64,000 nucleotides of DNA from an uncultured virus (IMG/VR IMGVR_UViG_3300021092_000032). Its lineage: Duplodnaviria > Heunggongvirae > Uroviricota > Caudoviricetes. Below the pieces are notes generated by a model. It searched no databases and had not been told where the DNA came from. It worked only from the letters and a program-made list of their open reading frames with translations. The stretch lies in IMG/VR virus record IMGVR_UViG_3300021092_000032; one strand, written 5' to 3'. Every line of letters begins with the position of its first letter. Position 1 is the first letter of the stretch. Below, piece by piece: positions 1 to 64,000 of the stretch. The position numbers and the translations under genes were made by a program.

Positions 1-92
1 GGGATCACTGGCACGCTGAAAAGGCTGAGCAGTTGCGGCAGTATGTGCGCGAACTAAAAACCTGGATACACCAGCAGGAAGGCCGCATTTAG
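1..92 (+). CDS. 3' end of small hypothetical protein (copy of 46633..46827)
   Basis: Encodes DHWHAEKAEQLRQYVRELKTWIHQQEGRI*, the same as the C-terminus of 46633..46827. Confidence 0.85.
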   Translation, partial: DHWHAEKAEQLRQYVRELKTWIHQQEGRI

Positions 93-108
93 CAACCCAC
101 CCCCACAT

Positions 109-148
109 GGAACCTCATGGAACCTCAAAGAACCTCATGGAACCTCAA
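109..148 (+). repeat. GGAACCTCAN decamer tandem array (4 units)
   Basis: Directly visible 10-bp period. Confidence 0.95.
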
Positions 149-157
149 TTTGTGCCG

Positions 158-208
158 CTAAGGCCCGGCAAACACGTCCGGACTACCCTGCGCCACGCTG
201 GTACAGCC
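158..208 (-). pseudogene. 3' fragment of the B-type PAAR gene (GCTSVAQGSPDVFAGP*)
   Basis: 51 nt identical to 46903-46953; truncated at 208. Confidence 0.9.
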
Positions 209-330
209 TGGGGGTTGTGGGCCAGCTGCTGGGGCACAGGAGCACGCAGACGACCGCCCGCTACGCGCACCTTGTGGATGAGGTAGCTCGCAGCGCCGTG
301 CGCCAGGTGGGGGCTGGGCTAAAGGTCTAG
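202..330 (+). pseudogene. C-terminal fragment of a tyrosine integrase
   Basis: Reads YSLGVVGQLLGHRSTQTTARYAHLVDEVARSAVRQVGAGLKV*, with the box II LGH...T.RYAH motif and catalytic Tyr. No start codon or N-terminal part. Confidence 0.85.
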
Positions 331-614
331 CCGGCAATTACGTCGTGGCTGCCGACAGCCACCGCCGTACAGGTTGCAATCTTGTCGCCGACCCGGCCAC
401 CGCCCTTGCCGTTTACGAACACCATCCGGCTGCCGATGGCGATGGGGGCCGCGTGCGTGGGGCACGGGGTGCCAGGCAATAGGTGGGGAGTATTTACGTC
501 GCCTTGCCGAGACCACGGACGCCCGTTCACAAACACGTCAAAGCTGCCTATAGCGCGAACCATCGGGGAGCAATGAGGAATGTCTGGATCACCTACACGT
601 GTTGCGGGTGGCAT
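327..614 (-). CDS. PAAR-repeat spike tip protein (module A)
   Basis: Three PAAR-like repeats (PATRVGD, VFVNGRPWSRQGD, VFVNGKGGGRVGD) with His/Cys metal ligands. Confidence 0.9.
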   Translation of the reverse strand: MPPATRVGDPDIPHCSPMVRAIGSFDVFVNGRPWSRQGDVNTPHLLPGTPCPTHAAPIAIGSRMVFVNGKGGGRVGDKIATCTAVAVGSHDVIAG

Positions 615-816
615 GGGTCCTCCTTAGCAGCTCAGTCAGTCTGTCCGACCAACGCTCGATCTCATCGTGCTGCTTGCGTGTATGGGGTGGTGGCGGAATT
701 ACGGGCTCAAAGCAGATCACCTCATCAATCTCCTGGGGTATGTCCTCCCAGCAATCAAAGCGCCAGCGTGCGCCGCTGATTAAAACCTCGAAGCGGTGCC
801 TCACGGCTTGGGCCAT
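589..816 (-). CDS. Hypothetical protein, PAAR-adjacent (PPPPHT..QH motif)
   Basis: Homolog at 47168..47395 in the same position; overlaps its neighbours. Confidence 0.75.
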   Translation of the reverse strand: MAQAVRHRFEVLISGARWRFDCWEDIPQEIDEVICFEPVIPPPPHTRKQHDEIERWSDRLTELLRRTHATRNTCR

Positions 817-1244
817 AGCTCACGCGGTGTCTTGCCGGTGGCCATCATCTGCGACAGGCGCTCGGCGCGTTGGCCCACCTGCGTGGCCCACTTACTGTCG
901 AGCATCATCGCTGCGGCCTTGGCGTACTCGCCGGCTTTGATCGTGGCGAGGGTGTTCTTGAACTGCAGCACTCCACCCAGCCCCATGTTGAACGTCATGT
1001 CGAGAAGCACCCGCTGGCGCACCTCGTCCAGCTGGCCAACCCACGGCAAAGCCCGGAGCAGCTCGCGCTCCTCCCGTGCGATGTCGTTGGCCAGCAGGTA
1101 GGCGGACTCCTCGGCGGTGATGCCTCGGTCATCCAGGTTGCGGCCCACCCCAATGGTTAGCTTGCCGGCGGTGCAGCGATAGGGCTTCAGGCGCTCGCCC
1201 TCGTGCAGGCGAAGCTGCCGCGTCATTGCAGCGCGGTCGATCAT
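801..1244 (-). CDS. Phage lysozyme (GH24 muramidase), endolysin
   Basis: HEGxRLKPYRCTAGKLTIGVG, DMTFNMG, MLDSKWATQVGQRA motifs. Confidence 0.92.
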   Translation of the reverse strand: MIDRAAMTRQLRLHEGERLKPYRCTAGKLTIGVGRNLDDRGITAEESAYLLANDIAREERELLRALPWVGQLDEVRQRVLLDMTFNMGLGGVLQFKNTLATIKAGEYAKAAAMMLDSKWATQVGQRAERLSQMMATGKTPRELWPKP

Positions 1245-1456
1245 TTGCGACGGTCCTTGGCCTTGACGCCGAGGATCAGGTCCAAAGGGCCGCCACCGCC
1301 CTTTTGTTTGGGGGAGTAAGGGAAGGCGCGCATCGCAGCGGTGAGTAGCAGCTGCAGCAGGCTGTTGGAACGCAGCTTGCTCATGCCGACAATCTCACTG
1401 GCCACGAACAGGGCCAGGCCGATGTATTCAAGATGGTGAACGTCCACGTCAAACAT
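1241..1456 (-). CDS. Small membrane protein, holin candidate
   Basis: Hydrophobic YIGLALFVASEIVGM segment directly upstream of the lysozyme; homolog at 47827..48015. Start chosen at MFDVDV. Confidence 0.55.
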   Translation of the reverse strand: MFDVDVHHLEYIGLALFVASEIVGMSKLRSNSLLQLLLTAAMRAFPYSPKQKGGGGPLDLILGVKAKDRRK

Positions 1457-1588
1457 GGCGGGGTCACTCCAGGTTAGATGTAGTGCAAGTAGGTGCCGAG
1501 AATGTATTTCGGCCCGGTGGTTGGTTTGCGTCCCGCGTGCAGCCAGGGCCACAGCGGCGGGAACATGAGCAGCAAACCGGCGGCCTTC

Positions 1589-2308
1589 TCAGGTCGTTGC
1601 CAGTATGGCCCAGCCGGAACCCGGCCCTTCAACCATCCAGCGTGGGCCGAAGTTCTTGTAGCTGTAACGCAGCTTCGCCCCCCAGTTGTTCACATAGGTG
1701 CCCGACACCAGATCGCATTCACCAAACGGGTCATGGACAACCAAACTCGTGTCGTCGTACCCAATGGCGCAGAGGTAGTGGCCTCCGCCTAAGGGCCTGT
1801 TGACCGGGCCTTTGTGAAGAAAGCCAAGCGGCACCGGGATTCCTTTGTCGATCTGCTTTTTCACCGTGTCGAAGTTGGCTTTCTGCGTGAACGCAGCCTG
1901 CACCCCATAGGTTGCCAGGGTCTTGATTTGTGCGCCGGCGTCCACCGTGTCTCCATGACGCAGCACGCGGCCAAGGTAGGCGTCGTCGCCGTTGGGGCCG
2001 TTCAAGGTGCCCGGCTTCATAGTTTCCAGCAACATGGCGCAGCTGCTGGAGAAGCACATCCGCAAGGCGTGCTGAGTAGCTGAGTCCCGCTGTGAGTAGT
2101 AATGCACGCTGAGCGGGTTTGTCTTGGGCGCTGGCTCAGGTTGCTTCCCGGCTGCTCGGTAAGTGTCTTTCCATTTAGCCGTTCGACTGTTCAGGCTTGC
2201 CGGCATCGCTTCATACAGTTCGCGGATGGCAGCGACCTGATGGGGCAAACCTTTGTAGTGCGTGAAGAACGGTAATAAATCTTCAATTTCGCTGCGTTTG
2301 TCAGTCAT
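1589..2308 (-). CDS. C39-like cysteine peptidase (putative second endolysin)
   Basis: YYSQRD...MCFSSSCAM (Cys), GGGHY (His), VHDPFG (Asp); N-terminal FF..YKGLPHQ domain. Confidence 0.8.
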   Translation of the reverse strand: MTDKRSEIEDLLPFFTHYKGLPHQVAAIRELYEAMPASLNSRTAKWKDTYRAAGKQPEPAPKTNPLSVHYYSQRDSATQHALRMCFSSSCAMLLETMKPGTLNGPNGDDAYLGRVLRHGDTVDAGAQIKTLATYGVQAAFTQKANFDTVKKQIDKGIPVPLGFLHKGPVNRPLGGGHYLCAIGYDDTSLVVHDPFGECDLVSGTYVNNWGAKLRYSYKNFGPRWMVEGPGSGWAILATT

Positions 2309-2568
2309 CGCATTTGAGCTGGAGGGTTGTGGTGCTCAAAAAGTAAACGCGGCGCAGCCATGGTCACAAGGATTGGCACTACCAAACTGAGCATGGCGGC
2401 TGCTCCTAGGACCCAAGCCAGCTTGCTTTCAAGATCGCGCATCCGGCTGAACAATCCGTCCAGCTCTGCTTTTCGCTCTGAGAGTGCCCCTATCAAAGCG
2501 TCAACCTTGCCTTCGAGCGCCCCAAGTTTGTGGTAGATGTCGGCGTGCGATACCTGCTCGTCGAGCAT
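2305..2568 (-). CDS. Coiled-coil protein with C-terminal TM helix (holin/antiholin-like)
   Basis: Heptad-like N-terminus plus WVLGAAAMLSLVVPILV; located in the lysis cluster; homolog at 48728..48988. Confidence 0.55.
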   Translation of the reverse strand: MLDEQVSHADIYHKLGALEGKVDALIGALSERKAELDGLFSRMRDLESKLAWVLGAAAMLSLVVPILVTMAAPRLLFEHHNPPAQMR

Positions 2569-2607
2569 GGCCTCATGTCTCTCAGGCTTAAGTCTAGAGG
2601 GCATTGT

Positions 2608-3705
2608 TCAACTGGTAGAGCCTGTGCTTTCGCCACTCTTGCCGCTGGTGCCGCAAGTGATTTTTGTTTGATAGCCCCGACTTGAGTATTCGTGCGTCAC
2701 GCTCTGGATTATCCACGTCGAGTTCAGTGGATCGCGGAAGCCGGTGAGCTTGATAGGGCGTTCGGCAAAAATGTCAGGTCGGCCCGCGCAGGTCAAGTCG
2801 ATTGTGACCGTACCGCTGGCCAAACTTTTGCCCCGAGCCTTGGCTGCCTCCATTGCCTCCTCGCGTGATGCGTGCAGCCTGCGGTCCTGGTAGCTAGGGC
2901 CAGAGCTAGTGCTGCCGCCACCGCCAATCAGACCGCCGCTAATGATCCCGAACAGCGAGTCCAGAAAGCCGATGCCCCCGCCCGCCGTGCTGTTGGGCAC
3001 CGGCACCTCAAGGGACTTCTCCGTGCCGGTCTCCTTGTCGTGGTACTTCGCCACGACCTTGCTGTAAGCGCCCCGGTCCTTAATAGTGGCTCGGTAGTCC
3101 TGCACCTGGGCCCGGTCAAGTGTCGCGGCAGTCAGCTGCTGGCCTGATGCCCCTACTCCTTCGCCAGCCGGGTTAAAGATCAGCTGACTTTCGGCTGGCT
3201 TGGATGTGGCTCCGTGCAGCCCAGCAAGGCGGGTTAAAAAGTGCGCGTCGCTTTCAGCGGTCTGATCAATGTGATCAATCTTGCGGTTGACGTAGCGCGA
3301 ATGCACACGCGGGGTCAAGCCATGCTCGCGAGCGATCTGGGTCACGATCTGGCCGATTGTCTTCTCGTGCCAACTGCGGGTTTTTTGCTGTTTAAGTTTT
3401 CCGCTAATCTCCATCGCTTTGGCCCTGATCTTGACCGTAGCTGGGGGGTGGCTTAGCTCCACCTCATCAATTACGTAGGTCCCCATGTCCTGCAGACTTT
3501 GCCCGTTGTGGGTGTAGCCCAGCGCCACGGTCAGCTCGACCTTGGCCTCAGGCAGCGGCAGGTTCTGGCCCCGGTCATCCAGGCTGATCTCAAGAGTGTC
3601 AGATTTCTGCCCAGCCTCGTCCTGCACCCTGATCGAAAGCAAACGATCAGCGATTTGCTTTGTGATGTCGTTGCCGCTGCTGGTGACGCGGAACCCAGGT
3701 TTCAT
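2608..3705 (-). CDS. Baseplate hub, P2 gpD-like
   Basis: DEAGQKSDTLEISLDD, DQTAESDAHFLTRLA; U-X-D synteny. Confidence 0.88.
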   Translation of the reverse strand: MKPGFRVTSSGNDITKQIADRLLSIRVQDEAGQKSDTLEISLDDRGQNLPLPEAKVELTVALGYTHNGQSLQDMGTYVIDEVELSHPPATVKIRAKAMEISGKLKQQKTRSWHEKTIGQIVTQIAREHGLTPRVHSRYVNRKIDHIDQTAESDAHFLTRLAGLHGATSKPAESQLIFNPAGEGVGASGQQLTAATLDRAQVQDYRATIKDRGAYSKVVAKYHDKETGTEKSLEVPVPNSTAGGGIGFLDSLFGIISGGLIGGGGSTSSGPSYQDRRLHASREEAMEAAKARGKSLASGTVTIDLTCAGRPDIFAERPIKLTGFRDPLNSTWIIQSVTHEYSSRGYQTKITCGTSGKSGESTGSTS

Positions 3706-3706
3706 G

Positions 3707-3931
3707 TCAGCTCCAGAGCTTTAATCGTGGCTCAGGTGGTAACGGGGCCAGTGCCGGCAGGGTGATCTTGATGCCCTCAGGCAGGATCGGCAGCAGAAGG
3801 GCCAGCTCGCGGTTTGCCTCTAGGGCAAGCACCGCCTCGGTTGAGCCGCGACTGTAGCCATAAAACCGGAAGCAGATTTCGTCTAGCTCGTCGCCTTGCT
3901 GGGTCAGGTAAATCTGGGAAAGGCTGCTCAT
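3707..3931 (-). CDS. Tail protein X-like (P2 gpX)
   Basis: TQQGDELDEICFRFYG...LPEGIKITLP...LW. Confidence 0.88.
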   Translation of the reverse strand: MSSLSQIYLTQQGDELDEICFRFYGYSRGSTEAVLALEANRELALLLPILPEGIKITLPALAPLPPEPRLKLWS

Positions 3932-4407
3932 GCGATCACCCCAAACAGGTCGCCGAACCAGCCGCCCCAGCCACCGCCACCATTGCCACCGCCACCACTG
4001 CTACCGCCACCAAATTGGTCCTCACCGTAGCGGGCTAACTCCATTGAGAAATCCACGTGCCGGGGGATGCCTGGGCCCACATAGACGGTCTGGGTCTCCT
4101 GCACCTGGGTGATGCAGTATTGCCCCAGCACGTTGCCTAGGCCGTCGATCAGCTGCAGCGGCTCGCCGCCCTCGGCCATCGTCCGCATGGTGTTGAGCTG
4201 GCCCAGACCGCCCCTGAAGTGGGGGTAGATCACCCCGTTTAGGTTGATCTTTTCTTCGCCCTTGCCGATGAACTGCATCGCCGGCTCGCGCCCCAGACGG
4301 TCCTGCTTCTCCCAGCGGTAGGCGCTCTGCCGTTGCAGCTGGTCGTGGGCTGCGGTGTTGATCTCGAATTGGAACCCGCCAAGGGTCATCAGGATCTGGG
4401 CTGCCAT
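3928..4407 (-). CDS. Tail tube initiator, P2 gpU-like
   Basis: LMTLGGFQF...YRW...PAMQFIGKGEEKINLNGVIYP. Confidence 0.88.
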   Translation of the reverse strand: MAAQILMTLGGFQFEINTAAHDQLQRQSAYRWEKQDRLGREPAMQFIGKGEEKINLNGVIYPHFRGGLGQLNTMRTMAEGGEPLQLIDGLGNVLGQYCITQVQETQTVYVGPGIPRHVDFSMELARYGEDQFGGGSSGGGGNGGGGWGGWFGDLFGVIA

Positions 4408-4409
4408 GG

Positions 4410-7382
4410 TCAGTCGTTTAGGAAGGCGCGGACGCCCGACTCCGCATCAGACAGGAACCCGCTCAGGGCCATAGTGACCTGCTGGGCAATCTCGTCTGCG
4501 CTGGCGTTGGTGCCGGCCACGTTGATATTGACGGTGGGGTTCATGTTCATCCCCATGGTGCCGCCCCCGGCCATTGCCATCGCGGGCGCTGGCGTGGGCA
4601 CCTGTGGGGAGTTGAGCTGCTGGAGCATCCCCATGGCCCCTGACAAAAGGCCGCTGTATTGAGGGGCAAACTTTTTGACCGCACCTTGCAACAGCTGGCC
4701 CAGGCCGCCAAGCATCCCACCGCCCTGGGCAGCCGGTGCCGTGGGCCTGGCGGGGTACTGTGGGATGAATGGCTGGCTGAGCATTGGCACGCCAGCTGCG
4801 GTTAGCTGCGGCTGCGCCTGGGGCTGCTGACCCTGTTGCGGGTTGTAGTTCTGCTGGGCTTTGGCCACTCCGCGCATCCCATGTGCGGCGGAGGCGTGGA
4901 TCGCATTATGCAGGACGGGTGATGCCTCGTTAACTCCGTCCGCCAGAGTGCTGATGATCGACTTGCCGCTAGCGGTTAGGTACTTGAAAGGGCCCTCCTT
5001 GGCGTCAGAGAAGGGCATCATCTTGCGCACATTGGCGAACACGCCTTTTACGGCGGCGTAAAGCGCCTGGGCCCGAGACACCACGCCCTGAATGATCGTG
5101 TCAATGATCGCCTCGCCGACGCCGACCACCATGCCGGGCACCGATTTGATGAACGCCACGATGCCCTGGAATGCCGTCACCGCCGCTGCCTTGGCTGCAG
5201 CGAACGCGGCGCCCACCTTGCTGGGGATCTGCATGAGCGCCCCCATGATCTGCTGGGCCAGCGAAATCGCGGCGCTGACGATCCCGCTGAAGGCCGTCTG
5301 AGCCATCGTCAGCAGGGTCCGCAGGCCGTTGAACGCCATTGCTGCGGCCGTGCCCATGGATTGGAACGCACCGGATAACATCGCCCTCAAGCCGCCCACG
5401 ATGTTGCGCAGGCCGGCGAAGGCTTGGTTTATGCCAGCCACCGCTCTTGTGGCGTCACCAGTAAAGATGCCGACGATCGTGTTCCAGATGCCTTTGATTA
5501 CGCCGACTACGCCGCGCAAGGCCTGGCCGATCCCGCTTAACATCTGACTGAGGCCGCCGCTCCACAGCGCCTGACCGATCGACATGAGTGCGCTTTTGAT
5601 CCGCCCGATCGCACCGGTCACCACGGCAAGCCCCTGATCGAACGCGCCCCGCAGACCGCTGGGGATCATCGCTCGCACCCAGCCCAGCCATGCCGACACC
5701 ATGGTGCGCACGCCGCCCAGCGCCTGATTAAACCCGGCGGCGATCAGCCCAGGGTTGAAGGTGAAAGCCCCGGCGACCATTTTGCCTAGGCCCCCGAGAA
5801 AGTTTAGGAACCCGCTGAGGGCTGTCTTGATCGCACCGAACGTGGCTTGGAACCTGGCGGCGATGCGCTGAAAGGCGCTTGTCACCGCTTTCCGAAACGC
5901 CGGCACCTTGTCCCATAGAGCCTTGAACGCCAGGCCCAAGCCCACGATGGCCAGCACTGCGATGCCGATGGGCCCGGTAATTGCCGCACCGATCGCAGCC
6001 ATGGCAGGGCCGATCGCGCCAGCCCATCCGGCGATGGTGGCCCCCAGGCTCATCGCCTTGATCGCAGCTCCCAGCGACGAGATCACGCTGATGAAGCTGG
6101 CGACAAACGGTGCAACCGCCACCAGCCCGACGAACGCAGCGCCCACGCCCACGATGGTGCTCGTCAGCCCAGGTGCTTTCTCCGCCAGCGCAGCAAAGCC
6201 CTCCACCAGGGGGGTGATCGTTTTGGCGGCAACCGCCAGCGCCGGCAGCAGAGCATTGCCCAGGGCGATGCCCAACCGCTCGGTGGTGGCCTTAAAGGTG
6301 TTGAGGTTGCCGTTCAAGGTGTTGATCGACTTCAGGTAGTCCTGCTCGACCGTGCCAGCTGCGGCATCACCGCCCGCGTCAGCCTTGAGCTTCTCGTACT
6401 CCTTGCGGTACTTCATCAGCGACATGAGGCCGAGTTTGGCCTCCTTGTCCCCGAAGATCTGAGAGAGCTTGAAGACATCACCACCGGTGACACGCTGCAG
6501 CTCGTCGAGCGCAGCCTCCATCGGGTTGACGCCTTTCTTCTTGGCGTTGGCGAGCACCTGTTCGATGTTGACGCCGAACTTTTTGAACCGTTTGACCGCA
6601 TCAGGCGCGGTCATTTTGAGCATGGCGTCGGTCATCCGGGTCGCCGCCTGCCCTGCGTCCGGCGCGTCCTTGCGCACCATCTGCATCATGGCCGCCAGGC
6701 TCACCGCGCCACTCTTGCCGGTGATGCCAAGGGTCCCAGCTGCCGCAGCAATGGTCGGCATGAACTGGGCCATATCCTTAAGCTCAAACGCGCCAGCCTT
6801 GCCTGCAAAAGCGAGCGCATCAAACGTGGACTTCAGCTCAGTCGGTTTGATCTTGAGGGCGTTTTGAAGTTGAAAGCCGGTCTTCGTAACGTCGGTCAGC
6901 TCCGAGCCGGTTGCGGTCGCAACCTTGCCCAGCGCCTCCATCGAAGCGACAGCATCCTTAAGGTCCAAGCCCTGGGCCACCAGGTCCTGGACGCCCTGCG
7001 CCAGCACCGTGGGTGCCAGGTTGGTCGTGTTGCGGGCTGACAGCGCCGACAGCTGTGCGCCCAGCGCCTTTAGCTCCGACTGACTGGATCCGCTGATCTT
7101 GCCGATCTCGGTAAGCGAGTCCTCAAACTTCGCAGCGGTCCGCACCGACTGGCCAAGGGCTAAGCCGATCGACGCCGCGCCAGCTGCCGCCACCTGGAAC
7201 GTATCGCTCCGCAGCATCCCCTTGAAGCCCTTGGCTCCAGCGGTTGCCGCGTCGTTAAACGTGCGGGTGACGTTGCGAGAGAAGCTGGAGACCTGGGTCT
7301 GTGCCGCCCGGAGCGAGCCCGCTAGCGACGCCGCTAGCTTGCCTCCAATCTCAACGGTGATCCGGCTAGTTGCCCCGGCCAT
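4410..7382 (-). CDS. Tape measure protein A (990 aa)
   Basis: Long Ala/Gly-rich helical protein with hydrophobic segments, between the chaperone and gpU. Confidence 0.92.
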   Translation of the reverse strand: MAGATSRITVEIGGKLAASLAGSLRAAQTQVSSFSRNVTRTFNDAATAGAKGFKGMLRSDTFQVAAAGAASIGLALGQSVRTAAKFEDSLTEIGKISGSSQSELKALGAQLSALSARNTTNLAPTVLAQGVQDLVAQGLDLKDAVASMEALGKVATATGSELTDVTKTGFQLQNALKIKPTELKSTFDALAFAGKAGAFELKDMAQFMPTIAAAAGTLGITGKSGAVSLAAMMQMVRKDAPDAGQAATRMTDAMLKMTAPDAVKRFKKFGVNIEQVLANAKKKGVNPMEAALDELQRVTGGDVFKLSQIFGDKEAKLGLMSLMKYRKEYEKLKADAGGDAAAGTVEQDYLKSINTLNGNLNTFKATTERLGIALGNALLPALAVAAKTITPLVEGFAALAEKAPGLTSTIVGVGAAFVGLVAVAPFVASFISVISSLGAAIKAMSLGATIAGWAGAIGPAMAAIGAAITGPIGIAVLAIVGLGLAFKALWDKVPAFRKAVTSAFQRIAARFQATFGAIKTALSGFLNFLGGLGKMVAGAFTFNPGLIAAGFNQALGGVRTMVSAWLGWVRAMIPSGLRGAFDQGLAVVTGAIGRIKSALMSIGQALWSGGLSQMLSGIGQALRGVVGVIKGIWNTIVGIFTGDATRAVAGINQAFAGLRNIVGGLRAMLSGAFQSMGTAAAMAFNGLRTLLTMAQTAFSGIVSAAISLAQQIMGALMQIPSKVGAAFAAAKAAAVTAFQGIVAFIKSVPGMVVGVGEAIIDTIIQGVVSRAQALYAAVKGVFANVRKMMPFSDAKEGPFKYLTASGKSIISTLADGVNEASPVLHNAIHASAAHGMRGVAKAQQNYNPQQGQQPQAQPQLTAAGVPMLSQPFIPQYPARPTAPAAQGGGMLGGLGQLLQGAVKKFAPQYSGLLSGAMGMLQQLNSPQVPTPAPAMAMAGGGTMGMNMNPTVNINVAGTNASADEIAQQVTMALSGFLSDAESGVRAFLND

Positions 7383-7385
7383 TGC

Positions 7386-7559
7386 TTACCTCCGTTTGGT
7401 CTTGGCCGCGATCTCCTTTTCGACTTCAGCGGCTGCTTTGTGCCATGCAAGCAGATCTTCCTGCGTCAGGCTAAGCAGATCTCCCAGGCCCCAGCCGGTG
7501 AGCTTGGCGACAATCACGCAGATACGTCTCAGCTCTCGTCCTGGGGCCCAGTGAAACCC
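7386..7559 (-). CDS. -1 frameshift extension of tail assembly chaperone (E+E' type)
   Basis: Slippery G GGT TTC at 7559-7553; the -1 frame reads ...KLTGWGLGDLLSL..DLLAW and ends just before the TMP. Confidence 0.8.
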   Translation of the reverse strand, partial: GFHWAPGRELRRICVIVAKLTGWGLGDLLSLTQEDLLAWHKAAAEVEKEIAAKTKRR

Positions 7560-7798
7560 GCCATAACGTTGGCGAGCTTTTGGAAATCCACAATGTCCAG
7601 CTGCTGGATGCTGGCAGGGGGCACGTCGCACAAGGCGGCCATCATGTTGACGGTCTTCTTGGCTTCAGTGCCCTTGCCTTCTTCGAAGGCCAGCTGATCA
7701 GCCACGGTGGGCCGGCGCATGGCCAGGGTTGAAACCTGAACCCCGTCAACCTCGACGGGGTAGTCCAGATCAATCGGTGTGGTGGGCCGGGTTTTCAT
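7529..7798 (-). CDS. Tail assembly chaperone (P2 gpE/Mu gp41-like)
   Basis: LDYPVEVDG...LAMRRPTVAD...LD..DF motif; lies between tube and TMP. Confidence 0.88.
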   Translation of the reverse strand: MKTRPTTPIDLDYPVEVDGVQVSTLAMRRPTVADQLAFEEGKGTEAKKTVNMMAALCDVPPASIQQLDIVDFQKLANVMAGFTGPQDES

Positions 7799-56616: not shown

Positions 56617-56644
56617 CGCGAAGGGGCCTCCTTACAAAATGAGT

Positions 56645-56773
56645 TTAGCGGCCCTGGCCCCTGAGCTTCTTGCGCCCGTGCGAGGGCTTTGAATGTTGTC
56701 CAGAGCCCTGGCGCGTGCGCTTAGGCTTGTGCTGGATTTTCAGGGCCTCCGGGCTGACCTTTGGCCGTGCCAT
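56645..56773 (-). CDS. Small basic protein (42 aa), not in the ORF track
   Basis: MARPKVSPEALKIQHKPKRTRQGSGQHSKPSHGRKKLRGQGR. Confidence 0.75.
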   Translation of the reverse strand: MARPKVSPEALKIQHKPKRTRQGSGQHSKPSHGRKKLRGQGR

Positions 56774-57012
56774 CAGGGTTCAGGGGCAGACCAGCCTTCA
56801 GGCAAGCCAAGCTCAAGGCAAGCTGCCGCAAGGGCGTCGTCCGCTAATTGGACAATGGCGACCGTCGGGTTTTTTACTTCCTTCAGGGCCACGCCGGGGC
56901 GCAATGCAAAGTAGCAATCGCCAGGGAAGCGATAAACCTTTTCAGCGGCTAGGAAGCCCTGTCCCCAGGGCTCAATCTTGCCAGTCAGCTCAAAGGAATA
57001 CAGAACAGACAT
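56773..57012 (-). CDS. Small hypothetical protein downstream of the fibre
   Basis: Start MSVLYSF, 2 nt after the fibre stop. Confidence 0.55.
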   Translation of the reverse strand: MSVLYSFELTGKIEPWGQGFLAAEKVYRFPGDCYFALRPGVALKEVKNPTVAIVQLADDALAAACLELGLPEGWSAPEP

Positions 57013-57014
57013 GA

Positions 57015-59285
57015 TTAGTAACCAGAAATGGGCAGGGGATGGAACTGGCCCCTGAGCGTGAAGGAGATGCTGGTTTGCCCCCAGGTGTTGTTTCCGCCCA
57101 CGTAAACCGTGCCGGACTGGCCAATGGCTGCCCAGCAAGATTCGCCAACATGTGGGCTGATGTGCGTGAAATCCACAAAGGGTTCAGGCTGGGTCCAGAC
57201 AGGTGTGAAAACTGCGTGCTGGGTGTTTGCTGAAGCAGAGTTGTTGATGTTGCTGAACTGCGTAAATACAAGTGGGCTTGTACTCCAAGTGCCAGCGATG
57301 TAAATCTGGCCACGGTCGTCCAGCAGTGTGACCGAGGCGTTTGTCGAGCTTTGGTAACCGTTGCAGAAAACCGCAACAGGCTTACCGAAGCGGAACTGTG
57401 TGGTGCCCCAAGTAGATGAATACTGAGTGGCGAGAATTTCCCCAGGGAACACAGATGCAGAGCCGGCGGCCTGCAGTGGATCACCGTAATCGCGGAAAAG
57501 GATTTCGCCTGGGAACCAGTTGCCAATCACCGTCGCGCTTGAGTCGCTGCTGGTGGACACGTTACGGCCAAGCTGCCCGCCGGCATTGTTGCCCCAGGAG
57601 TAAACCTTTGGCTGCACAGCAGTTCCGCCGTCAGTGATGACGTAAATGCTGGGGTATCGGCCGCCACATACCCACATGGAAACCACTTTCTGGCCGCCGG
57701 AATTGAAGGTTGTAGAAGCGTTAGTAATTTCCACCGGCATGGAATTATTTGCGCTGGTGGAGCTGTAAACACCGGTATAGATACCAAAGGCATCGTTCCT
57801 GCCACAGGCATAAACGCGGCCTTCAGAAGTCAGCAAGAAGGTGCGGCCGTGATTTGAGTCGCCGTCTGTGGCCACAACGTGGACGATTTTCTTGCCGTTG
57901 ATTGCCGAGTTGGCAATGGCGGTAATTTCAACCGGACGATTCTGGTTGGTCGTGTTGTTAATGCCTAACTGGCCATGAGCGTTGTAGCCCCATGCGAAGC
58001 ATTTGCCAGTTGCTGTGATTGCGAAAACATGTGCGTATTGCCCACCGCTAACGGTGATGTACTCAACGTTTTCATTATTGAAAAAGCTGCGAGCTATACG
58101 ACGTGCAAAGTAGTTATTAGTGGTTGTGCCATCACCAATTTGGCCATAAGCGTTGTAACCAAAGGCGTACACGTTGCCATCAGTGTCTAACGCATAATGT
58201 GCGCCGAGAGTGGTATTGGCGTCACTCGTTGCAGAGCTGCAGAAATGTTTGATTTTAGGCCGCGCAGCGTCCACAAGAATCGAATTAGATTCGCTGTAAA
58301 ACTGCACGGGGACGGCAGCATCCATTTGAGTTGGCGTGGTCCCGTTGCCAACTAGGCCTGAAGCTGCATAACCAGCGCCATACAGGATCCCGTTTTCGCT
58401 CAGGTGGAAACTGTTGAAAAAGCCAGAATGGGTGCGGATGATCTTTGGCTGACGGGCAATCGTGTCAGTGATCGGCAGGCCATCCAGCGTCGTGGCAAAC
58501 TTTGCGTGATTGGTGTCACCAGCCAAAGCCTTCCAGTGGAAGTTCGGCACGCGGAACACCGTTGGGAACGATGGGACGTTGATTGCGTTGTAGTCGGTGC
58601 CTATGCCACCAGCGTTGTAATAATTGCCGTTGGTTGAGTCGTTGTAGTTGTTGCCCCATGTGAAATGCCGTCCGGAACGGCTGATATACCCGCCACGGCG
58701 GTAGCCGATCCAGCTGGACGGGGCTTGCTTGCCACGGCCGTACTTGGTATGCGGCAGCGCGGCATGGCCAGCCCCTGTGAGGTTGTAGTTGCTGTTTGGA
58801 AAGGCAAAGCCGAGGGCGCCTTTTGTGGCTTCCACGGCGGCCAGGGCGGCGGCTTGACTGTTGGCAACTGACGCAACGGCGCTTTGAGCGGTGGTTTGCG
58901 CAGTGGTGGCCGTGGCGAGAGCCGTGTTGGCGGTGGTTTGGGCAGCGCCTGCGGCAGTTTGCGCAGTCCCGGCTAAGTTGTTTGCAGCGGTCAGGGCGTT
59001 TGTAACCGTGACCGAGAACGCCTCGTCATTGTTCAGCGCAAGGGCCAACTCGCCCAAGGTGTTCAAGGCGCCAGGGGCCCCGGCCATCAGGCTGTCTACA
59101 GCCTGCTGAACCAGTGCCTGAACCTGCGCTTGGTTCAGCTTTGTAGCCAGCGCAGTGAACAGCGCGTCTACGTCCACGTCAAGGGCTTGCAGGGCGTCAC
59201 GGAGACGCACAACATCCTCGGCCAGGAGGTTGGAAGGGAACGGGAGCGGATAATTCCGCTGAGCGGTGCGGGTGTCAGTAGGCAT
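57015..59285 (-). CDS. Tail fibre / receptor-binding protein with RCC1-like repeats (B)
   Basis: Fibre N-terminus as in 11293..11934; repeated G.VY.WG.N..GQLG.G. Confidence 0.82.
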   Translation of the reverse strand: MPTDTRTAQRNYPLPFPSNLLAEDVVRLRDALQALDVDVDALFTALATKLNQAQVQALVQQAVDSLMAGAPGALNTLGELALALNNDEAFSVTVTNALTAANNLAGTAQTAAGAAQTTANTALATATTAQTTAQSAVASVANSQAAALAAVEATKGALGFAFPNSNYNLTGAGHAALPHTKYGRGKQAPSSWIGYRRGGYISRSGRHFTWGNNYNDSTNGNYYNAGGIGTDYNAINVPSFPTVFRVPNFHWKALAGDTNHAKFATTLDGLPITDTIARQPKIIRTHSGFFNSFHLSENGILYGAGYAASGLVGNGTTPTQMDAAVPVQFYSESNSILVDAARPKIKHFCSSATSDANTTLGAHYALDTDGNVYAFGYNAYGQIGDGTTTNNYFARRIARSFFNNENVEYITVSGGQYAHVFAITATGKCFAWGYNAHGQLGINNTTNQNRPVEITAIANSAINGKKIVHVVATDGDSNHGRTFLLTSEGRVYACGRNDAFGIYTGVYSSTSANNSMPVEITNASTTFNSGGQKVVSMWVCGGRYPSIYVITDGGTAVQPKVYSWGNNAGGQLGRNVSTSSDSSATVIGNWFPGEILFRDYGDPLQAAGSASVFPGEILATQYSSTWGTTQFRFGKPVAVFCNGYQSSTNASVTLLDDRGQIYIAGTWSTSPLVFTQFSNINNSASANTQHAVFTPVWTQPEPFVDFTHISPHVGESCWAAIGQSGTVYVGGNNTWGQTSISFTLRGQFHPLPISGY

Positions 59286-59289
59286 TGGT

Positions 59290-62200
59290 TCAGACCATCA
59301 CTGCGCGGATGTTGCGGACCTTTGGCCTGTGGGCCGCCGTTCCGGTGAGGTTTAGCTTCACCTTGGAAGCCGACAGGCCCACAATACCGGTGTCCTGATA
59401 AACGTACTCGACGTAGCCATCCCCGATGGGGGTGGCCTTGAGCAACGTCATGTTCTGGAAACCGTTCTTGTCGTACTGAGGCACCACGGTTGAGGAGCCG
59501 GGGACAAGCGCATCGAAAATGACGCGCATGGTGTTTCCGCCGGAGCCGACCAGGAACTGACGGCTCTGGTAGAAGCCGCTTGTATCCAGGCTGCCAACCA
59601 CCGACTGGACGCCGGTGTAAAGCACTGGGCTTTCTGTGGCTGTTCCTCGCAGAATCGCCTGCACCTGCATAGTGTCGTTGATTGATGCGGCGAACTGGAC
59701 GCCTTGGCCTGCAGCCAGCGTAAAGGTTTCTCCAGTGGTCCGGGTGTAGCGGAAGAAGAGGTCGGTGTTTTCGCTGGGCAGTTCCACAGCAGCCACCACC
59801 AGCAAGTCGGTCATGCCGCTTACCGTAAGGCTGCCCAGGTTGAACACCTGTTCAGTGGCCGTGAAGTTGGCCCCAACGAGGCGGAAAGTTAAATCCTTTT
59901 CTTGGTGAGCTGTCCAGGTAACGTTATTTGAACTGCTAAGCAACACGCCAATCGTGTAAGGCTGCGCAGTCACCCAGCGTGCCGCTGTGGAGTCGTACTT
60001 GCCAAGCTCTGCCACGCGTACCGCATGGTTTGCGTCGTCGGTGAGCAGCACGATGAAATACTCAACGCCGCCAACCAAGTACACAGGGGCGCTGAAGCTA
60101 GCCCGAACGTAAGTGTTCGTTGTGACAATTTCGTTAGGTTGGATTATTGTTTGAGCAATGACGGTTTCAGTTGGGAAGCCGTTGCTGCTCTCACGGATTT
60201 GCACCTGGACAGGCTTGTTTGCACCCTTCACAGCAAACTTCAGGTCAATAGCCTTGATGTGGCGTGATTGCTGGAGGGTAAAACTCTGCGCCAGCGGGTC
60301 AGGACCACGAGGGGCAGGCGGCGGTGGATTCCAGCGAGTAGTTGTGGTTGTGGTGGTTTGCCTGAAGTTGCGAATGAGCAGGGTGCCTTGGCCCGTGTAG
60401 ACCGCAGAGCCGAAGCTGCCCTGCACGCCAATGAACTCGACCAGCTTGCTGCCAGCGGGAACGTTGGGTGGAACTGTAAAGGAGCCGCTGAACGAACCAG
60501 AAAGGTTGGCGACAACCCCGCTGGGGGTAATGTTGCGCCCGTCAAATCGCAGTATTGAAAGACCTTCGTTTGGCCCGAAACCGCTAACACTGAAATTAAC
60601 AGTAGTCGCTCGCAGAAACTCGATTGCGCTTCTGCTTTCGCTTACAAGGGTTGTAACGGTGCTAGTGCTAGTGCTGCTTTGGCTGCCACTGCCAAAGACA
60701 AACGCTTGCGTAGCAAAAGTGGTCGCATTTTCGGTGACTGTGTAAAGATCGAGCGCCGGGTTTAGAACCACAGCAGCAGGCATCGGATCAAAGCTCTGGT
60801 ACGGGTTGATTTTCATTTCACCCGTGCGCAGCTCTTGGCCGATCAGCACTTCATCAGTTGAAGGCAGCAGTTTCGTTGCCGTGTTGTTCAAGGTTGCCAG
60901 GACAGGCGTGCCGCTGATAGCAAGCTGCAGGTCTTGGCCTACAATCACAGCGTCTTGTTCTACACCTGCATCGCGCAAATCGTCGTCAAACAGCGGGTCA
61001 GTAAATACGCCGTATTTTGCCGTTGGCTCTTTCGAGCTAATGTCCCGCTGCAAGCGCTCATCGGCTACGAGATTGTATAGCTCAATAACTGATTCCTTGA
61101 TTTGCCGCTGTTCCTTCATTGAAACAACGCGAGTACCGTCGTTGAATGTGCGCGGAACTTTTGTGCTTATCCAATCGTGGTAGATGCTGGCAAGTTGCAG
61201 CAAAACGTCAGACACGCCGGGCCGAATTGGATTAAACGCCGAAGGCACACCCTTGACTCGACTCAGCACGCCTTCGCGGTCAAGCACAATCGCGTCGAAG
61301 CGAGGCATTTTCCAGCGGTAGTCATTCAGGACCAAAGTGTTCGCTACGGCGCCCTGGATTTGGAAGGTGCCGGCGTCGGCGTTGATGTTGGTTGGGGTGA
61401 CGCTTTTGAGGAACCGGTATGTGACTGTATAGGTGCTGCCAGGGGCAGGCTCTGGACCGTTTGGGCTCCAGTCCACCTGATCAGCTGTGAGGTTGTAGCT
61501 AGTGCCTGCCTGGAAGGTGGTGGTTCCTTGCTTCACCTCTTCAATGCTGAGCACTGCAGTATTTGGCAGCGCATCCAATGCCCCAGTGAAAGATCCGTGG
61601 GTCATAGTCACGGTTTCTTCAGCCGTGATGACCACATCCATAATATTGTTGAGCGGCTTACGGTTCAACGAGATTGTCTGGAGCGCCGTGCCGGTGCTTA
61701 CCTTCGGCTCATTTGTAATGGTTTGTAAATCAGGGTCAATTCCAAAGCTGAGGGGCGAAGCCTGCGGCTTGTCAATTTTGTTGCCCTCAACGTTTGCAAC
61801 ACCTTCCTGAACACTAAACACGTAGTTCGTCTGGGTGTTGTCTTTGCCCAGTGCAAACAGGTTCAACCCGTTGACGATGTAGTTGCCGTTGGCGTCGCGG
61901 TCATAGCGGGCCAGAAGCTGCTTCACACCATCAAGCTGAGGCGGCGCTTCCTGGTTCAGCAACACGCCGTCACGTACGGCGTACACGGTGTAGAAATCGC
62001 CGGTACCACCGTCGCCATTCCAAGCCCAAGTGACCGTCCGACGGGTGCGGCCAGCGCCAGATTCTTGGTAGTTGCGTGTGCCCACCGCAGGGTCGCGCAG
62101 CGCAGGTGACTCAAGCTCTGTGATGGTTTCCGTTACCACTCTGACGCCGATCTGCACGTCACCAGTTGTTGGGATCGTGTAGTTCGAGGCTGCCACCTCA

Positions 62201-62454
62201 CGCACTGCGCCCAGTACATAGACGGCGCCGCTCTCCATTTGCACGTAGCCGGTTTGTGCGTCAATGGCTGCGGATGCGCCGCGCACAACAGAGCCATCGC
62301 GGAACAGGACGTTGGCAATTTTCTGCAGGCGATCGCTGAAGACCGACTGGATCTCGTTCAGTTCCGCCGACTGAAGGCCTTTGCTGGCACGGAACAGCAG
62401 CTCGTCGTAACGATCTGCGGCGCTGAAACGGTTGTAGTAGCCCTGGAGTGACAT
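59290..62454 (-). CDS. DUF4815-like large structural protein (B)
   Basis: Full-length homolog of 11939..15112. Confidence 0.8.
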   Translation of the reverse strand: MSLQGYYNRFSAADRYDELLFRASKGLQSAELNEIQSVFSDRLQKIANVLFRDGSVVRGASAAIDAQTGYVQMESGAVYVLGAVREVAASNYTIPTTGDVQIGVRVVTETITELESPALRDPAVGTRNYQESGAGRTRRTVTWAWNGDGGTGDFYTVYAVRDGVLLNQEAPPQLDGVKQLLARYDRDANGNYIVNGLNLFALGKDNTQTNYVFSVQEGVANVEGNKIDKPQASPLSFGIDPDLQTITNEPKVSTGTALQTISLNRKPLNNIMDVVITAEETVTMTHGSFTGALDALPNTAVLSIEEVKQGTTTFQAGTSYNLTADQVDWSPNGPEPAPGSTYTVTYRFLKSVTPTNINADAGTFQIQGAVANTLVLNDYRWKMPRFDAIVLDREGVLSRVKGVPSAFNPIRPGVSDVLLQLASIYHDWISTKVPRTFNDGTRVVSMKEQRQIKESVIELYNLVADERLQRDISSKEPTAKYGVFTDPLFDDDLRDAGVEQDAVIVGQDLQLAISGTPVLATLNNTATKLLPSTDEVLIGQELRTGEMKINPYQSFDPMPAAVVLNPALDLYTVTENATTFATQAFVFGSGSQSSTSTSTVTTLVSESRSAIEFLRATTVNFSVSGFGPNEGLSILRFDGRNITPSGVVANLSGSFSGSFTVPPNVPAGSKLVEFIGVQGSFGSAVYTGQGTLLIRNFRQTTTTTTTRWNPPPPAPRGPDPLAQSFTLQQSRHIKAIDLKFAVKGANKPVQVQIRESSNGFPTETVIAQTIIQPNEIVTTNTYVRASFSAPVYLVGGVEYFIVLLTDDANHAVRVAELGKYDSTAARWVTAQPYTIGVLLSSSNNVTWTAHQEKDLTFRLVGANFTATEQVFNLGSLTVSGMTDLLVVAAVELPSENTDLFFRYTRTTGETFTLAAGQGVQFAASINDTMQVQAILRGTATESPVLYTGVQSVVGSLDTSGFYQSRQFLVGSGGNTMRVIFDALVPGSSTVVPQYDKNGFQNMTLLKATPIGDGYVEYVYQDTGIVGLSASKVKLNLTGTAAHRPKVRNIRAVMV

Positions 62455-62461
62455 GGCAGCC

Positions 62462-62947
62462 TCAGAAAGTCAGAACGAACTCAAAGGTTTCGCGAGTGGC
62501 TGGCGTGCGAATAATCGCAGGCACATGCTCTAGCAGGTAGAGCGTGCCAGGGCTCTGAACCTCCTCGACGTCAAAGAATAACTGTCCTTGAGGGAGCCCG
62601 GTTTGAACCACAGTGTCTAGCAAGATGCCAGTTTCACGGATGGTCGCTGTGCTGGCGTTTTCAAAATCGAGTGTAAACCGCAAGTAAAGGAAGTTTGTCT
62701 GGGCAGTGCTGAGGTCGTATCGCCCGCTGGGCAGCACAATCGCGCCCTCAACTGCTGGGAGCACAAAACTCACCTGAGCAGCCTTGCGAAAACCGATGGC
62801 GGAAAGGAGCGCACTGCTGGAAATGCTTTCAGGCGGGGTGCCAGCATCATCCCAGAGGGGGCTGCCGGCGCCTACGCCGAGGAAGATGTTGCGGGCTGCG
62901 ACAGAAGCCGCCAAACCGGCGCGGCCTGAGGTCGTGAGGGTTGCCAT
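62462..62947 (-). CDS. Baseplate-associated protein (B)
   Basis: Homolog of 15120..15605. Confidence 0.7.
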   Translation of the reverse strand: MATLTTSGRAGLAASVAARNIFLGVGAGSPLWDDAGTPPESISSSALLSAIGFRKAAQVSFVLPAVEGAIVLPSGRYDLSTAQTNFLYLRFTLDFENASTATIRETGILLDTVVQTGLPQGQLFFDVEEVQSPGTLYLLEHVPAIIRTPATRETFEFVLTF

Positions 62948-62989
62948 TAGGCCATAGCCTCCTGAGTCGTAGTCATTCTAGGGGTCAGT

Positions 62990-64000
62990 CTAGGTGAGGG
63001 TTTGATGGTGGCTCTGAACGAAACGATAAGTTGGGTTCCATGCTGCGTCATTGTTCGGGTCTGTCGGCAGCCAGGGTTGACCGTATTGATCAATCCATGG
63101 CTCCGTTGATGCCCAGCCATTTGCCACGCCAAGCATCCAATCTGTAGCCGCCCACCCAGCATATGGCCAGGGCTGGCTTCCTTCAGTCCAGGCGTCGGTG
63201 TCGTCGCCGGTCCAGTTACCAGCCTGCCAATCTGGCGTGTCGGCCGTGGTCCAGGCTTCGGTTTCTTCCCATGCAGCGAGCGTGAAGTGGCGGAACGATG
63301 TGTGGCTGCTGCGGGTGTGTTGCGAAGTGGCACCTGGCGCGGCCAGGGCTGCGCTGGCGTGGAAACGGTGGATGCCATCTGCATATCTGGAGTGGGCGCT
63401 TGCAATCTGCAGGCTCGTGGGGTTCCAGGCCACACGCTGCGCCCACAGATTGTCGTTCCAGAAGCCCGCTGCCCCTTGCGACCAGTAGTTTTCGGTCCAA
63501 GATGCAGCGCCCCAAACCTCGCCGCCGGTTGCCCAAGCCTCGGCTCCATCGCCGGCCCAGTTGGCCTGACTCCAGTCCGTGAACAGGAACCGGGCGATTT
63601 CTGTCTGGCTTGTGCGGGTGTGCTGTGAGGTTGCGAAGCCCTGGCGATTTTCGACCGGGCCGGCCGATGCAAAACTCCGCTCGTACCGCTGCTCTTCTGC
63701 AAACCCAAGGACAGCATTGCTGGAGCCCAGGGGGTCGCTGTCGGAGAGATATATACCTGCGCGAAGCTGCCGTCCAGCAAAACTTGAATACAGCGATTGC
63801 CAAGGCCCAGCATCTGCCCAGGTGGGGTGATGGTCCCAAACGGGAACGTCGGCCACATAATCGTTCCAGGCCAGCCCGTTCCATGCGTATGCATCCAGCC
63901 AGTGCGGCCGGCGTTGCGCTGCAATGGCCGGATCTGTTGTGCTGTCCCAGTTGCCGTCCGCCCATGTAATGAGGGTTTGCCAGGCAGGCCGAGCCACATC
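62990..64000 (-). CDS. C-terminal part of Trp-rich gpI-like protein (B), 5' end outside the window
   Basis: AGIYLSD..PLG.SN and W-x4-W repeats as in 15648..18311; syntenic. Confidence 0.72.
   Translation of the reverse strand, partial: DVARPAWQTLITWADGNWDSTTDPAIAAQRRPHWLDAYAWNGLAWNDYVADVPVWDHHPTWADAGPWQSLYSSFAGRQLRAGIYLSDSDPLGSSNAVLGFAEEQRYERSFASAGPVENRQGFATSQHTRTSQTEIARFLFTDWSQANWAGDGAEAWATGGEVWGAASWTENYWSQGAAGFWNDNLWAQRVAWNPTSLQIASAHSRYADGIHRFHASAALAAPGATSQHTRSSHTSFRHFTLAAWEETEAWTTADTPDWQAGNWTGDDTDAWTEGSQPWPYAGWAATDWMLGVANGWASTEPWIDQYGQPWLPTDPNNDAAWNPTYRFVQSHHQTLT

Follow-up and report, generated by a model that had tools for sequence, protein, structure and literature searches.

Two diverged tail and lysis modules around one core in a lake phage contig: a very probable assembly walk over two co-existing genotypes

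Tailed phages, according to the Modular Theory, replace a functional module by a homologous one, and the same source lays out the WO phages as a lambda-type head combined with a P2-type contractile tail (PMC3173496). Chimeric contigs made from related viruses have been described in virome assembly benchmarks, metaSPAdes included (PMC5610896). In known de Bruijn chimeras of this kind a near-identical region becomes one edge, two genomes are joined through it, and the contig ends fall on k-mer vertices. The window analysed here, the whole 64,000 nt stretch of IMG/VR record IMGVR_UViG_3300021092_000032, resembles them in these respects and is very probably not one molecule but an assembly walk over a pair of lake phage variants, which co-exist and have a near-identical core in common. 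Both tail gene sets are themselves real.

Unlike the known chimeras, this contig is unusually tidy, its 24-kb core being flanked to left and right by a complete alternative arm of 22 kb, and it therefore mimics a genome with duplicated modules. As in modular evolution, a contiguous tail, baseplate and lysis cassette has been exchanged, and identity remains at 99% or more in the genes for head, replication and early functions. This differs from the usual module exchange in that about 25 genes are involved at once, the genotypes occur in the same samples, and stubs of a PAAR gene and of a donor integrase can still be read.

The best TerL relatives among deposited phages are Wolbachia phage WO (54-57%) and Ralstonia prophage-like records (55%), and the TerL matches in 969 phage records are all less than 60% identical. 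A megablast search of window positions 20000-44000 against 50,697 phage records gave no DNA match. Like the WO-type phages, the genotypes have a gpA-type terminase, a lambda-family portal and P2-like tail genes (Pfam); in contrast to them, DUF4815 and BW3TFN baseplate genes are present, and PAAR and C39-like genes lie at the distal end. The likeness to the P2 tail cluster (V W J I H G / FI FII E E' T U D) covers V, W, J, I, sheath, tube, a chaperone with a -1 extension, TMP, U, X and D. It differs from P2 in its lambda-like head genes, in the additional DUF4815 and BW3TFN genes, and in the lysis genes and PAAR that follow gpD. A search of bacterial genome contigs with gpD of module A found 13 loci (Neisseria, Burkholderia, Pantoea, Erwinia, Oceanospirillaceae), whose prophage gpD relatives, the nearest ones seen, are only 26-36% identical and so too distant to name a host or to check for a PAAR-integrase neighbourhood.

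The two modules, the core and their joints

Protein families were assigned with Pfam in two scans of 40 proteins each (80 ORFs) and, in addition, with PHROGs. Two co-linear, P2-like tail and lysis modules, A (128-22543) and B (46863 to beyond 64000), both on the minus strand, flank a single core (Table 1). The original prediction of a tail and lysis gene series occurring twice in the same order and orientation is thereby borne out by Pfam. It had placed the end of the series in A at 18311; the module goes on through J, W, V, tail terminator and head-tail attachment genes to 22543, so the shared core does not begin at about 18.3 kb.

Table 1. Features of the window, by module, core and joint
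Feature	Position	Strand	Evidence or remark
Module A
PAAR	327-614	-	Pfam
Lysozyme	801-1244	-	Pfam
103-aa ORF	1241-1552	-	
C39-like peptidase	1589-2308	-	Pfam
gpD	2608-3705	-	Pfam
X	3707-3931	-	Pfam
U	3928-4407	-	Pfam
TMP, 990 aa	4410-7382	-	Pfam
Chaperone	7529-7798; with -1 extension 7386-7798	-	Pfam, reading frames
Tube	7804-8310	-	Pfam
Sheath	8319-9533	-	Pfam
Fibre region (161-aa ORF, Gly-rich protein, 213-aa fibre)	9708-11934	-	Pfam, PHROGs
DUF4815	11939-15112	-	Pfam
BW3TFN	15120-15605	-	Pfam
gpI	15648-18311	-	Pfam
J, W, V (575 aa)	after gpI, up to 21408	-	Pfam
Tail-terminator-like and head-tail attachment proteins	up to 22495	-	Pfam, PHROGs
Shared core
Head, replication and early core, 24,319 bp	22544-46862		Pfam, PHROGs
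Head/packaging: cement, capsid, portal, head-tail adaptor, TerL, TerS	within 22544-46862		
Tet/JBP-like, AAA, ParB-like, neck gene, primase, helicase	within 22544-46862		
RecE-like exonuclease, RecT, HTH regulators, denV-like gene	within 22544-46862	+	
Neck/tail-completion gene	31562-32122		Pfam, PHROGs; inside the shared core
Module B
PAAR	46903-47199	-	Pfam
Lysozyme	47380-47820	-	Pfam
C39	48027-48836	-	Pfam
D	49014-50408	-	Pfam
X	50405-50617	-	Pfam
U, 377 aa	50614-51747	-	Pfam
TMP, 840 aa	51740-54262	-	Pfam
Chaperone	54417-54680	-	Pfam
Tube	54687-55193	-	Pfam
Sheath	55204-56616	-	Pfam
RCC1-repeat fibre	57015-59285	-	Pfam
DUF4815	59290-62454	-	Pfam
BW3TFN	62462-62947	-	Pfam
gpI, runs off the window	from 62990	-	Pfam
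Joints
Branch-vertex sequence, first bases of the window	1-127		exact copy of 46736-46862
Same branch-vertex sequence, leading into module B	46736-46862		
10-bp tandem repeat array, unit CATGGAACCT, 4.2 copies	106-147	+	Tandem Repeats Finder, sequence
10-bp repeat array at the B junction, 5.2 copies	46841-46892		Tandem Repeats Finder, sequence
PAAR-B-type stub, last 16 codons and stop	158-208	-	identical to 46903-46953
Tyrosine integrase 3' remnant, 40 codons	208-330	+	translation
Right-hand joint, A/B convergence	22424-22543		mismatch map, L001 against window
Second integrase allele, 3' remnant	46456-46524	+	L011 alignment, ORFs, sequence

In module A the P2-like tail families (sheath, tube, E-type chaperone, TMP, U, X, D and V/W/J/I) keep their conserved order with Pfam scores above the curated cut-offs, as do those of module B, in the same order, from PAAR to BW3TFN. 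The description of the copies as homologous but diverged agrees with the 21 of 24 module B proteins that have a counterpart in A at E<=1e-3, at identities from 27% (TMP) to 89% (C39). The I, J, W and V-like proteins of module B, read from the related contig L001, are 33-61% identical to those of A. DNA identity is 67-72% over the alignable stretches of the modules, and 90% in C39. Judged from the sequences, this likeness is far above chance. The predicted differences were also seen: the tape measures are of 990 and 840 aa; the fibre is a small fibre with a Gly-rich protein in A and a 756-aa RCC1-repeat protein in B; and there are insertions in U, D and the sheath. A diverged patch in gpI of module B (63681-63945) was considered as the product of a DGR, and this reading was dropped because its substitutions are of every kind and not adenine-specific.

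Both modules had been described as intact, including their frameshift sites. Every listed gene of A and B has an open frame throughout, and the reading frames reveal a conserved -1-frame extension of the chaperone in both. The chaperone of A has the canonical heptamer G GGT TTC in phase. The site in B has just five G residues near or before the stop, so this part of the claim holds only partly for B; in both modules the putative E' frameshift is read from sequence.

At the left joint, the 51-nt PAAR-B stub is detached from any PAAR body and is probably the scar of a replaced B-type module. Beside it, the integrase remnant at 208-330 converges on the PAAR gene of A and resembles the C-terminus of the full-length integrase of contig L011; the B junction lacks this remnant. 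Its 40 codons carry the LLGH...RYAH motif. The 10-bp arrays are unlikely to be integrase arm sites, because eight such arrays are scattered over the replication and early region. Similarity between A and B climbs from 22424 at the right joint, and the final difference is at 22543. Near the other end of the core, a 1,292-bp segment of L011 holding attP and the integrase gene is missing from the window between 46455 and 46456, and loose contig ends are found there in all four runs. The attP of L011 contains the 3' half of a tRNA-fMet-like gene. There are no tRNA genes in the 64-kb window, no full integrase among its 80 scanned ORFs, and no bacterial genes in the 64 kb according to Pfam and PHROGs.

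Contig ends, closure and depth

The first 127 bases of the window are identical, letter for letter, with 46736-46862, and the first difference between A and B is at position 128. An independent IMG/VR contig of 22,670 bp (G002/L003) matches window 1-22670 at 99.96-100%, begins at window base 1, and ends 127 bases beyond the last A/B difference (22543 + 127 = 22670). The JGI workflow is described as using metaSPAdes with k = 33, 55, 77, 99 and 127 (10.1101/2020.09.30.320929). These end signatures point to the source of the window having been assembled with k = 127.

Both genomes close separately as circles. L012, a section of a metagenome contig of 87,474 bp, has core 36879-46735 joined directly to window 1-10181, and the passage from A into the core is found in the window and G002. 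The join from the early region into B is present in L011, from another sample. Contigs L001 and L002 carry module B with 4.9 kb more baseplate genes and then continue from window 22464 onward into cement, capsid, portal and TerL, their head genes being 99.7% and 97.3% identical to those of the window core. In L001, module B extends about 4,972 nt beyond the window, through gpI, J, W, a short V-like gene, terminator-like and attachment genes, to the head genes. The second head set for which the original prediction suggested a search after module B is thus present in full. Genome A is 46,735 bp and genome B approximately 46,429 bp. CheckV assigns fragments of 22,670, 21,159 and 16,587 bp a completeness of 49%, 45% and 36%, respectively, which implies a genome of about 46-47 kb and not 69 or 93 kb.

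The core of the window is that of the A-linked haplotype, and B-linked cores differ from it. There are no differences from the A-linked core of L012 over 9,857 nt (100%). Over 2,530 nt, the B-linked core of L011 departs from the window by 18 substitutions and by the loss of 10 nt at 44812, and this deletion is present too in runs X20 and X22, in which only B was seen. Across 4,910 nt of its B-linked head L001 shows 14 mismatches, compared with 4 across 10,060 nt of its module B.

The 87,474-bp contig has 40,612 nt before its A junction and 46,862 nt from the junction to its end. Its first core is preceded by 16.4 kb, a length that agrees to within 91 nt with that of the B-arm contig G003 counted from its break in the 99-bp repeat of TMP-B. 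By this length arithmetic the contig seems to hold the core twice (B-part, core, A, core), which is equally what a true A-core-B-core tandem would give.

Logan contigs of the phages were found in 23 runs, and depth was compared in four of these (X1, X9, X20 and X22). The depths are k-mer means, one figure per contig, and are neither copy numbers nor read mapping; that of A comes from only two short A-allele contigs, which match the homologous stretches of B. In X1 the core is at 253, B at 37 and the A-allele contigs at 228 and 245; the 228x contig has the A-arm base at 17 of 17 variant letters. In X9 the core is at 120-123, B at 28-34 and A at 105 and 78. In X20 the core (14.2) is about equal to B (14.4) and there is no A-allele contig at the junction; in X22 the core is at 6.7 and B at 7-9, and no A was seen. 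Since contigs drop rare variants, A is to be taken as rare, not absent, in these two runs. The A:B ratio is therefore ~6:1 in X1, ~3:1 in X9 and ~0:1 in X20 and X22. Core depth is the sum of A and B, and A and B are unequal. This was the depth relation that had been predicted to mark a chimera.

The Logan B contigs begin at 46924 in X1 and X9, and that of X1 ends 4,959 nt beyond 64000, at the window equivalent of 22530. These breaks, at which B merges with A in a k=31 graph, occur only in runs that hold A. The contigs of X20 continue through both of them and those of X22 through the left one.

Origin of the contig

Of the three origins originally offered, a co-assembly of two related phages is favoured by the k=127 contig-end signatures, by a core depth equal to A + B with A and B unequal, and by further contigs in which either genome closes without the other. 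The two co-occurring genotypes would each have a complete genome of about 46.5 kb, in which a lambda-like head and packaging region is combined with a P2-like contractile tail and with an early region of replication and RecET genes; some variants also have an integrase. They would have in common the 24.3-kb core, at least 99% identical, and differ in 22-kb tail, baseplate and lysis cassettes of ancient divergence. In a short-read de Bruijn graph (k = 127) of a lake-water metagenome, the contig would run from arm A of a bubble through the core into arm B. Because the core collapses to one graph edge, a path that comes in from A is free to go out into B, and the contig that results shows a single core between two tail modules. 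There would then be no two-tailed phage, since the modules belong to two variants strung onto one contig by the short-read assembler. The graph-end signatures, both closed circles, the depth relations and the haplotype linkage are direct observations.

A physical tandem, whether a heterodimeric concatemer or two related prophages (A-core-B-core) from which the window was cut, is unlikely and also not needed. Such a circle would have both the window (A-core-B) and, by length arithmetic, the 87-kb contig as sub-paths; variants of the L011 type have an integrase and an attP with the tRNA-fMet-like half, so that lysogeny and double lysogeny are possible; and rolling-circle concatemers could be mixed in co-infected cells. 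However, the units of a tandem should have equal copy number, and A and B are unequal in a run-dependent way (~6:1, ~3:1, ~0:1), which contradicts an obligate tandem and makes that form very unlikely. In addition, the window has no tRNA, no att site or integrase between the units (int and attP being deleted at 46455/46456) and no bacterial genes, its ends lie exactly on k=127 vertices, and the core that adjoins B carries the A-linked haplotype. The assembly itself is no evidence of A-B linkage, because a short-read assembler cannot span a 24-kb repeat. A single genome of about 69 kb with two alternative tail cassettes for two receptors would account for both cassettes being intact and complete, and for a neck/tail-completion gene in the shared core. 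It is rejected as exceedingly improbable in view of the full head and packaging set after module B in L001, the direct join of the early core to A in L012, the presence of B without detectable A in X20 and X22, an A depth 3-6 times that of B in X1 and X9, and the genome size of about 46-47 kb implied by CheckV.

Probable replacement of the tail cassette

With the window read as a co-assembly, the underlying biology is the replacement of a whole tail cassette between near-identical temperate phages, an ordinary and well known form of mosaicism. The scars suggest that a B-type genome took up the A cassette. A double crossover, with an integrase-bearing relative as the donor of the whole cassette, is the probable origin of the A genotype. 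The crossover at 22424-22543, within the attachment and cement genes, looks homologous; the second was apparently illegitimate, leaving the 51-nt PAAR-B stub and a 123-nt stub of the donor integrase (158-330). The direction of the swap, its mechanism, and a differing host range as its consequence are what we infer.

Contigs of the A-core-B type inflate apparent genome size, can pass as 'novel architectures' and mislead completeness estimates. They can be quickly recognised by a k-mer-length end signature together with a core depth equal to A + B.

There is an even chance that one recent event swapped the entire 22-kb cassette (about 25 genes) in a single temperate lake phage lineage, leaving directional scars and genotypes that persist together. 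On this reading, swaps may be driven by the phage's own RecE/RecT pair together with the 10-bp arrays of the left joint, and co-infected cells could for a short time contain mixed A/B concatemers. Partitioning of hosts or receptors would agree with the sample-specific A:B ratios. Taken apart from each other, the two genotypes make a clean pair, distinguished solely by the full tail cassette, which is useful for the study of tail swaps and host range in nature.

The two tail modules

The 64-kb window has a GC content of 54-64% and no N, and no tRNA genes were found in it. Pfam scans covering 80 of its ORFs bore out the two gene series of the original prediction, both of which lie on the minus strand. 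The gene order predicted for module A also holds, but not its end limit, as J, W, V, tail-terminator-like and head-tail attachment proteins follow gpI, the last of them ending at 22495. In module B the order recurs from PAAR to gpI, with a tape measure (TMP) of 840 aa, U of 377 aa, D of 464 aa, sheath of 470 aa and RCC1-repeat fibre of 756 aa. A module A match exists for 21 of 24 module B proteins, with identities from 27% (TMP) to 89% (C39). At the DNA level the modules are 67-72% identical in alignable stretches and 90% in C39. Between the two modules is the core, whose genes are given in the table. Of the frameshift sites expected to be intact in both, the -1-frame extension is conserved in both chaperones, whereas the canonical slippery heptamer is found in A and just a G5 run in B.

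Features of the window (arrays, 10-bp tandem repeats)
Feature	Position	Strand	Basis
Module A PAAR	327-614	-	Pfam
Module A after PAAR: lysozyme, C39-like peptidase, gpD, X, U, 990-aa tape measure, E-type chaperone, tube, sheath		-	Pfam
Module A after sheath: fibre region, DUF4815, BW3TFN, gpI		-	Pfam
Module B PAAR	46903-47199	-	Pfam
Module B gpU	50614-51747
gpU-B repeats	51155-51303
TMP-B 99-bp repeat	52463-52667
Module B gpI	62990 to past window end	-	Pfam
gpI-B diverged patch	63681-63945
Core head/packaging: cement, capsid, lambda-family portal, gpA-type TerL, TerS			Pfam, PHROGs
Other core: Tet/JBP-like oxygenase, AAA protein, ParB-like protein, neck protein, primase, helicase			Pfam, PHROGs
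Core early: RecE-like exonuclease, RecT, HTH regulators, denV-like gene			Pfam, PHROGs
Genes directly upstream of TerS	29260-31402
gpZ-like tail-completion/Neck1 gene	31562-32122
Arrays	106-147, 32167-32212, 34666-34711, 35274-35322, 43324-43424, 44773-44828, 46529-46601, 46841-46892

The gpU of module A has only 159 aa, and in the extension in B a 36-bp unit (12 aa) is repeated in tandem about three times. Inside the TMP-B gene, 99 bp are repeated in tandem (2.1 copies, 98% match), and the IMG/VR B contigs break at this repeat; contigs from two lake-water runs (X9 and X22) lack one unit, giving a protein 33 aa shorter. The patch in gpI-B differs at about 30 positions in contigs from runs X1 and X20, with mixed substitution types and contig joints of the 'goes back' and 'same length, diverged' kinds. 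An allelic or duplicated segment seems likelier here than DGR-type variation.

Probably two genomes with a common core

Public contigs were searched with exact patterns taken from the window. Two IMG/VR stretches (L001 and L002), 99.96-99.99% identical to 53941-64000, continue past 64000 with 4.9 kb more of baseplate genes (gpI-B of 953 aa, J, W, short V-like, terminator-like and attachment genes) before entering sequence that matches the window from 22464 on, with 99.7% identity over 4,910 nt in L001. The cement, capsid, portal and terminase genes that follow module A therefore follow module B too. In L012, from a metagenome contig of 87,474 bp (the 87-kb contig), core 36879-46735 is joined directly to window 1-10181, so the early region leads into A as well; the early-to-B join is present in L011, from another sample. 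The core closes as a circle with either arm, of 46,735 bp with A and approximately 46,429 bp with B. CheckV completeness values of 49%, 45% and 36% for fragments of 22,670, 21,159 and 16,587 bp likewise indicate a genome of about 46-47 kb.

The A-linked core of L012 has no differences from the window in 9,857 nt compared, whereas in 2,530 nt of the B-linked core of L011 there are 18 substitutions plus a 10-nt deletion at 44812, the deletion being also present in runs X20 and X22. For L001, mismatches number 14 over 4,910 nt of the head region versus 4 over 10,060 nt of module B. The core of the window is thus that of A, and where the window passes into B, at 46862, the haplotype changes.

Each of 22 lake-water runs contained 83% or more of the sampled words of the core, and Logan contigs from four of these were compared with 44001-64000.

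Depth in four runs (per-contig k-mer means; A read through just two short contigs; rare variants dropped from contigs)
Run	Core	B arm	A-allele contigs
X1	253	37	228 (C39), 245 (junction)
X9	120-123	28-34	105 and 78
X20	14.2	14.4	none at junction (rare variants dropped)
X22	6.7	7-9	none (rare variants dropped)

The C39 A-allele contig has the A-arm base at 17 of 17 variant letters. The B contigs start at 46924 in X1 and X9, and that of X1 stops 4,959 nt past 64000. At these points A and B first have a 31-mer in common. Contigs of X20 pass through both merge points and those of X22 through the left one. In contig k-mer depths the core therefore equals A plus B, which the original prediction had given as the sign of an assembly chimera, with A:B from about 6:1 to about 0:1.

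Window 1-127 is the same as 46736-46862 in every letter, the first difference being at base 128. An independent IMG/VR contig of 22,670 bp (G002) matches window 1-22670, sharing its start base and ending exactly 127 nt past the last A/B difference (22543). The largest k of the JGI metaSPAdes workflow is 127 (section 13 of 10.1101/2020.09.30.320929). These 127-nt signatures characterize a bubble arm between two graph vertices, on one of which the window begins.

The two-tail layout is thus very probably an assembly product, and chimeric contigs from similar co-existing viruses are on record (PMC5610896). The depths fit two genomes with a common core. A single phage with two tails is effectively excluded, since the same head and terminase genes follow module B in L001 and L002, the finding named beforehand as refuting it, and the 1:1:1 depth of one genome does not fit the runs. 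A real tandem of the two units is improbable; its obligate heterodimer form should give 1:1:2, against the A:B ratios seen. Going by lengths alone, the 87-kb contig would end at window-equivalent 46862, which is also where the vertex that begins the window ends in its second copy, and its first 16.4 kb agrees in length with the B arm as measured from the TMP-B 99-bp repeat; its order would be B-part, core, A, core.

Core genes and lysogeny

None of the 969 phage records that match the TerL reaches 60% identity. Those of Wolbachia phage WO (54-57%) and Ralstonia (55%) match best. Relatives of gpD at 13 bacterial loci are 26-36% identical.

L011 contains a 1,292-bp segment (2521-3812), absent from the window at 46455/46456, with a full 439-aa tyrosine integrase beside a 46-nt tRNA-like piece. 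This piece resembles an initiator-tRNA-like gene, of which it would form the 3' half, and is likely to be an attP core; no whole tRNA was predicted by ARAGORN. Of the integrase gene, the window retains just the final 19 or so codons (46456-46524). Loose contig ends at 46455/46456 in all four runs indicate that int+ and int- forms co-occur; the full gene and its remnant together point to a temperate lineage with int+ and int-deleted forms.

Directly upstream of TerS are genes for a Tet/JBP-like 2OG-Fe oxygenase, a small P-loop protein and a ParB-N-domain protein, which may be a DNA-modification cluster. The oxygenase is under the Pfam cut-off and matches a PHROG labelled queuine tRNA-ribosyltransferase (E=3e-53). 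The shared core also includes the Neck1 gene, at a distance of about 9 kb from the tail cassette, so one neck protein would have to serve both tail types. The eight arrays (core ACCTCA, 3-7.6 copies each) are forward near plus-strand genes and reverse-complemented in the minus-strand replication region. Haplotypes differ in the number of copies, with the 10-nt indel at 44812 and 4 units at the A junction versus 5 at the B junction. A regulator or initiator of the phage may bind to these arrays.

Exchange of the tail cassette

At the right joint (22424-22543) identity climbs gradually inside the attachment and cement genes, as is typical of homologous exchange. On the A side of the left joint, the shared vertex and 10-bp array are followed by a 51-nt stub (158-208) identical to the 3' end of PAAR-B, then by what remains of the 3' end of a tyrosine integrase gene (40 codons, 208-330) and the complete PAAR-A gene. 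From this arrangement we infer that the A cassette was probably donated to a B-type genome by a relative with an integrase gene adjoining PAAR. The RecE-like and RecT proteins of the phage could promote such exchange. Module replacement is classic in the Modular Theory (PMC3173496), and the underlying swap of tail cassettes, though real, belongs to a kind already known.
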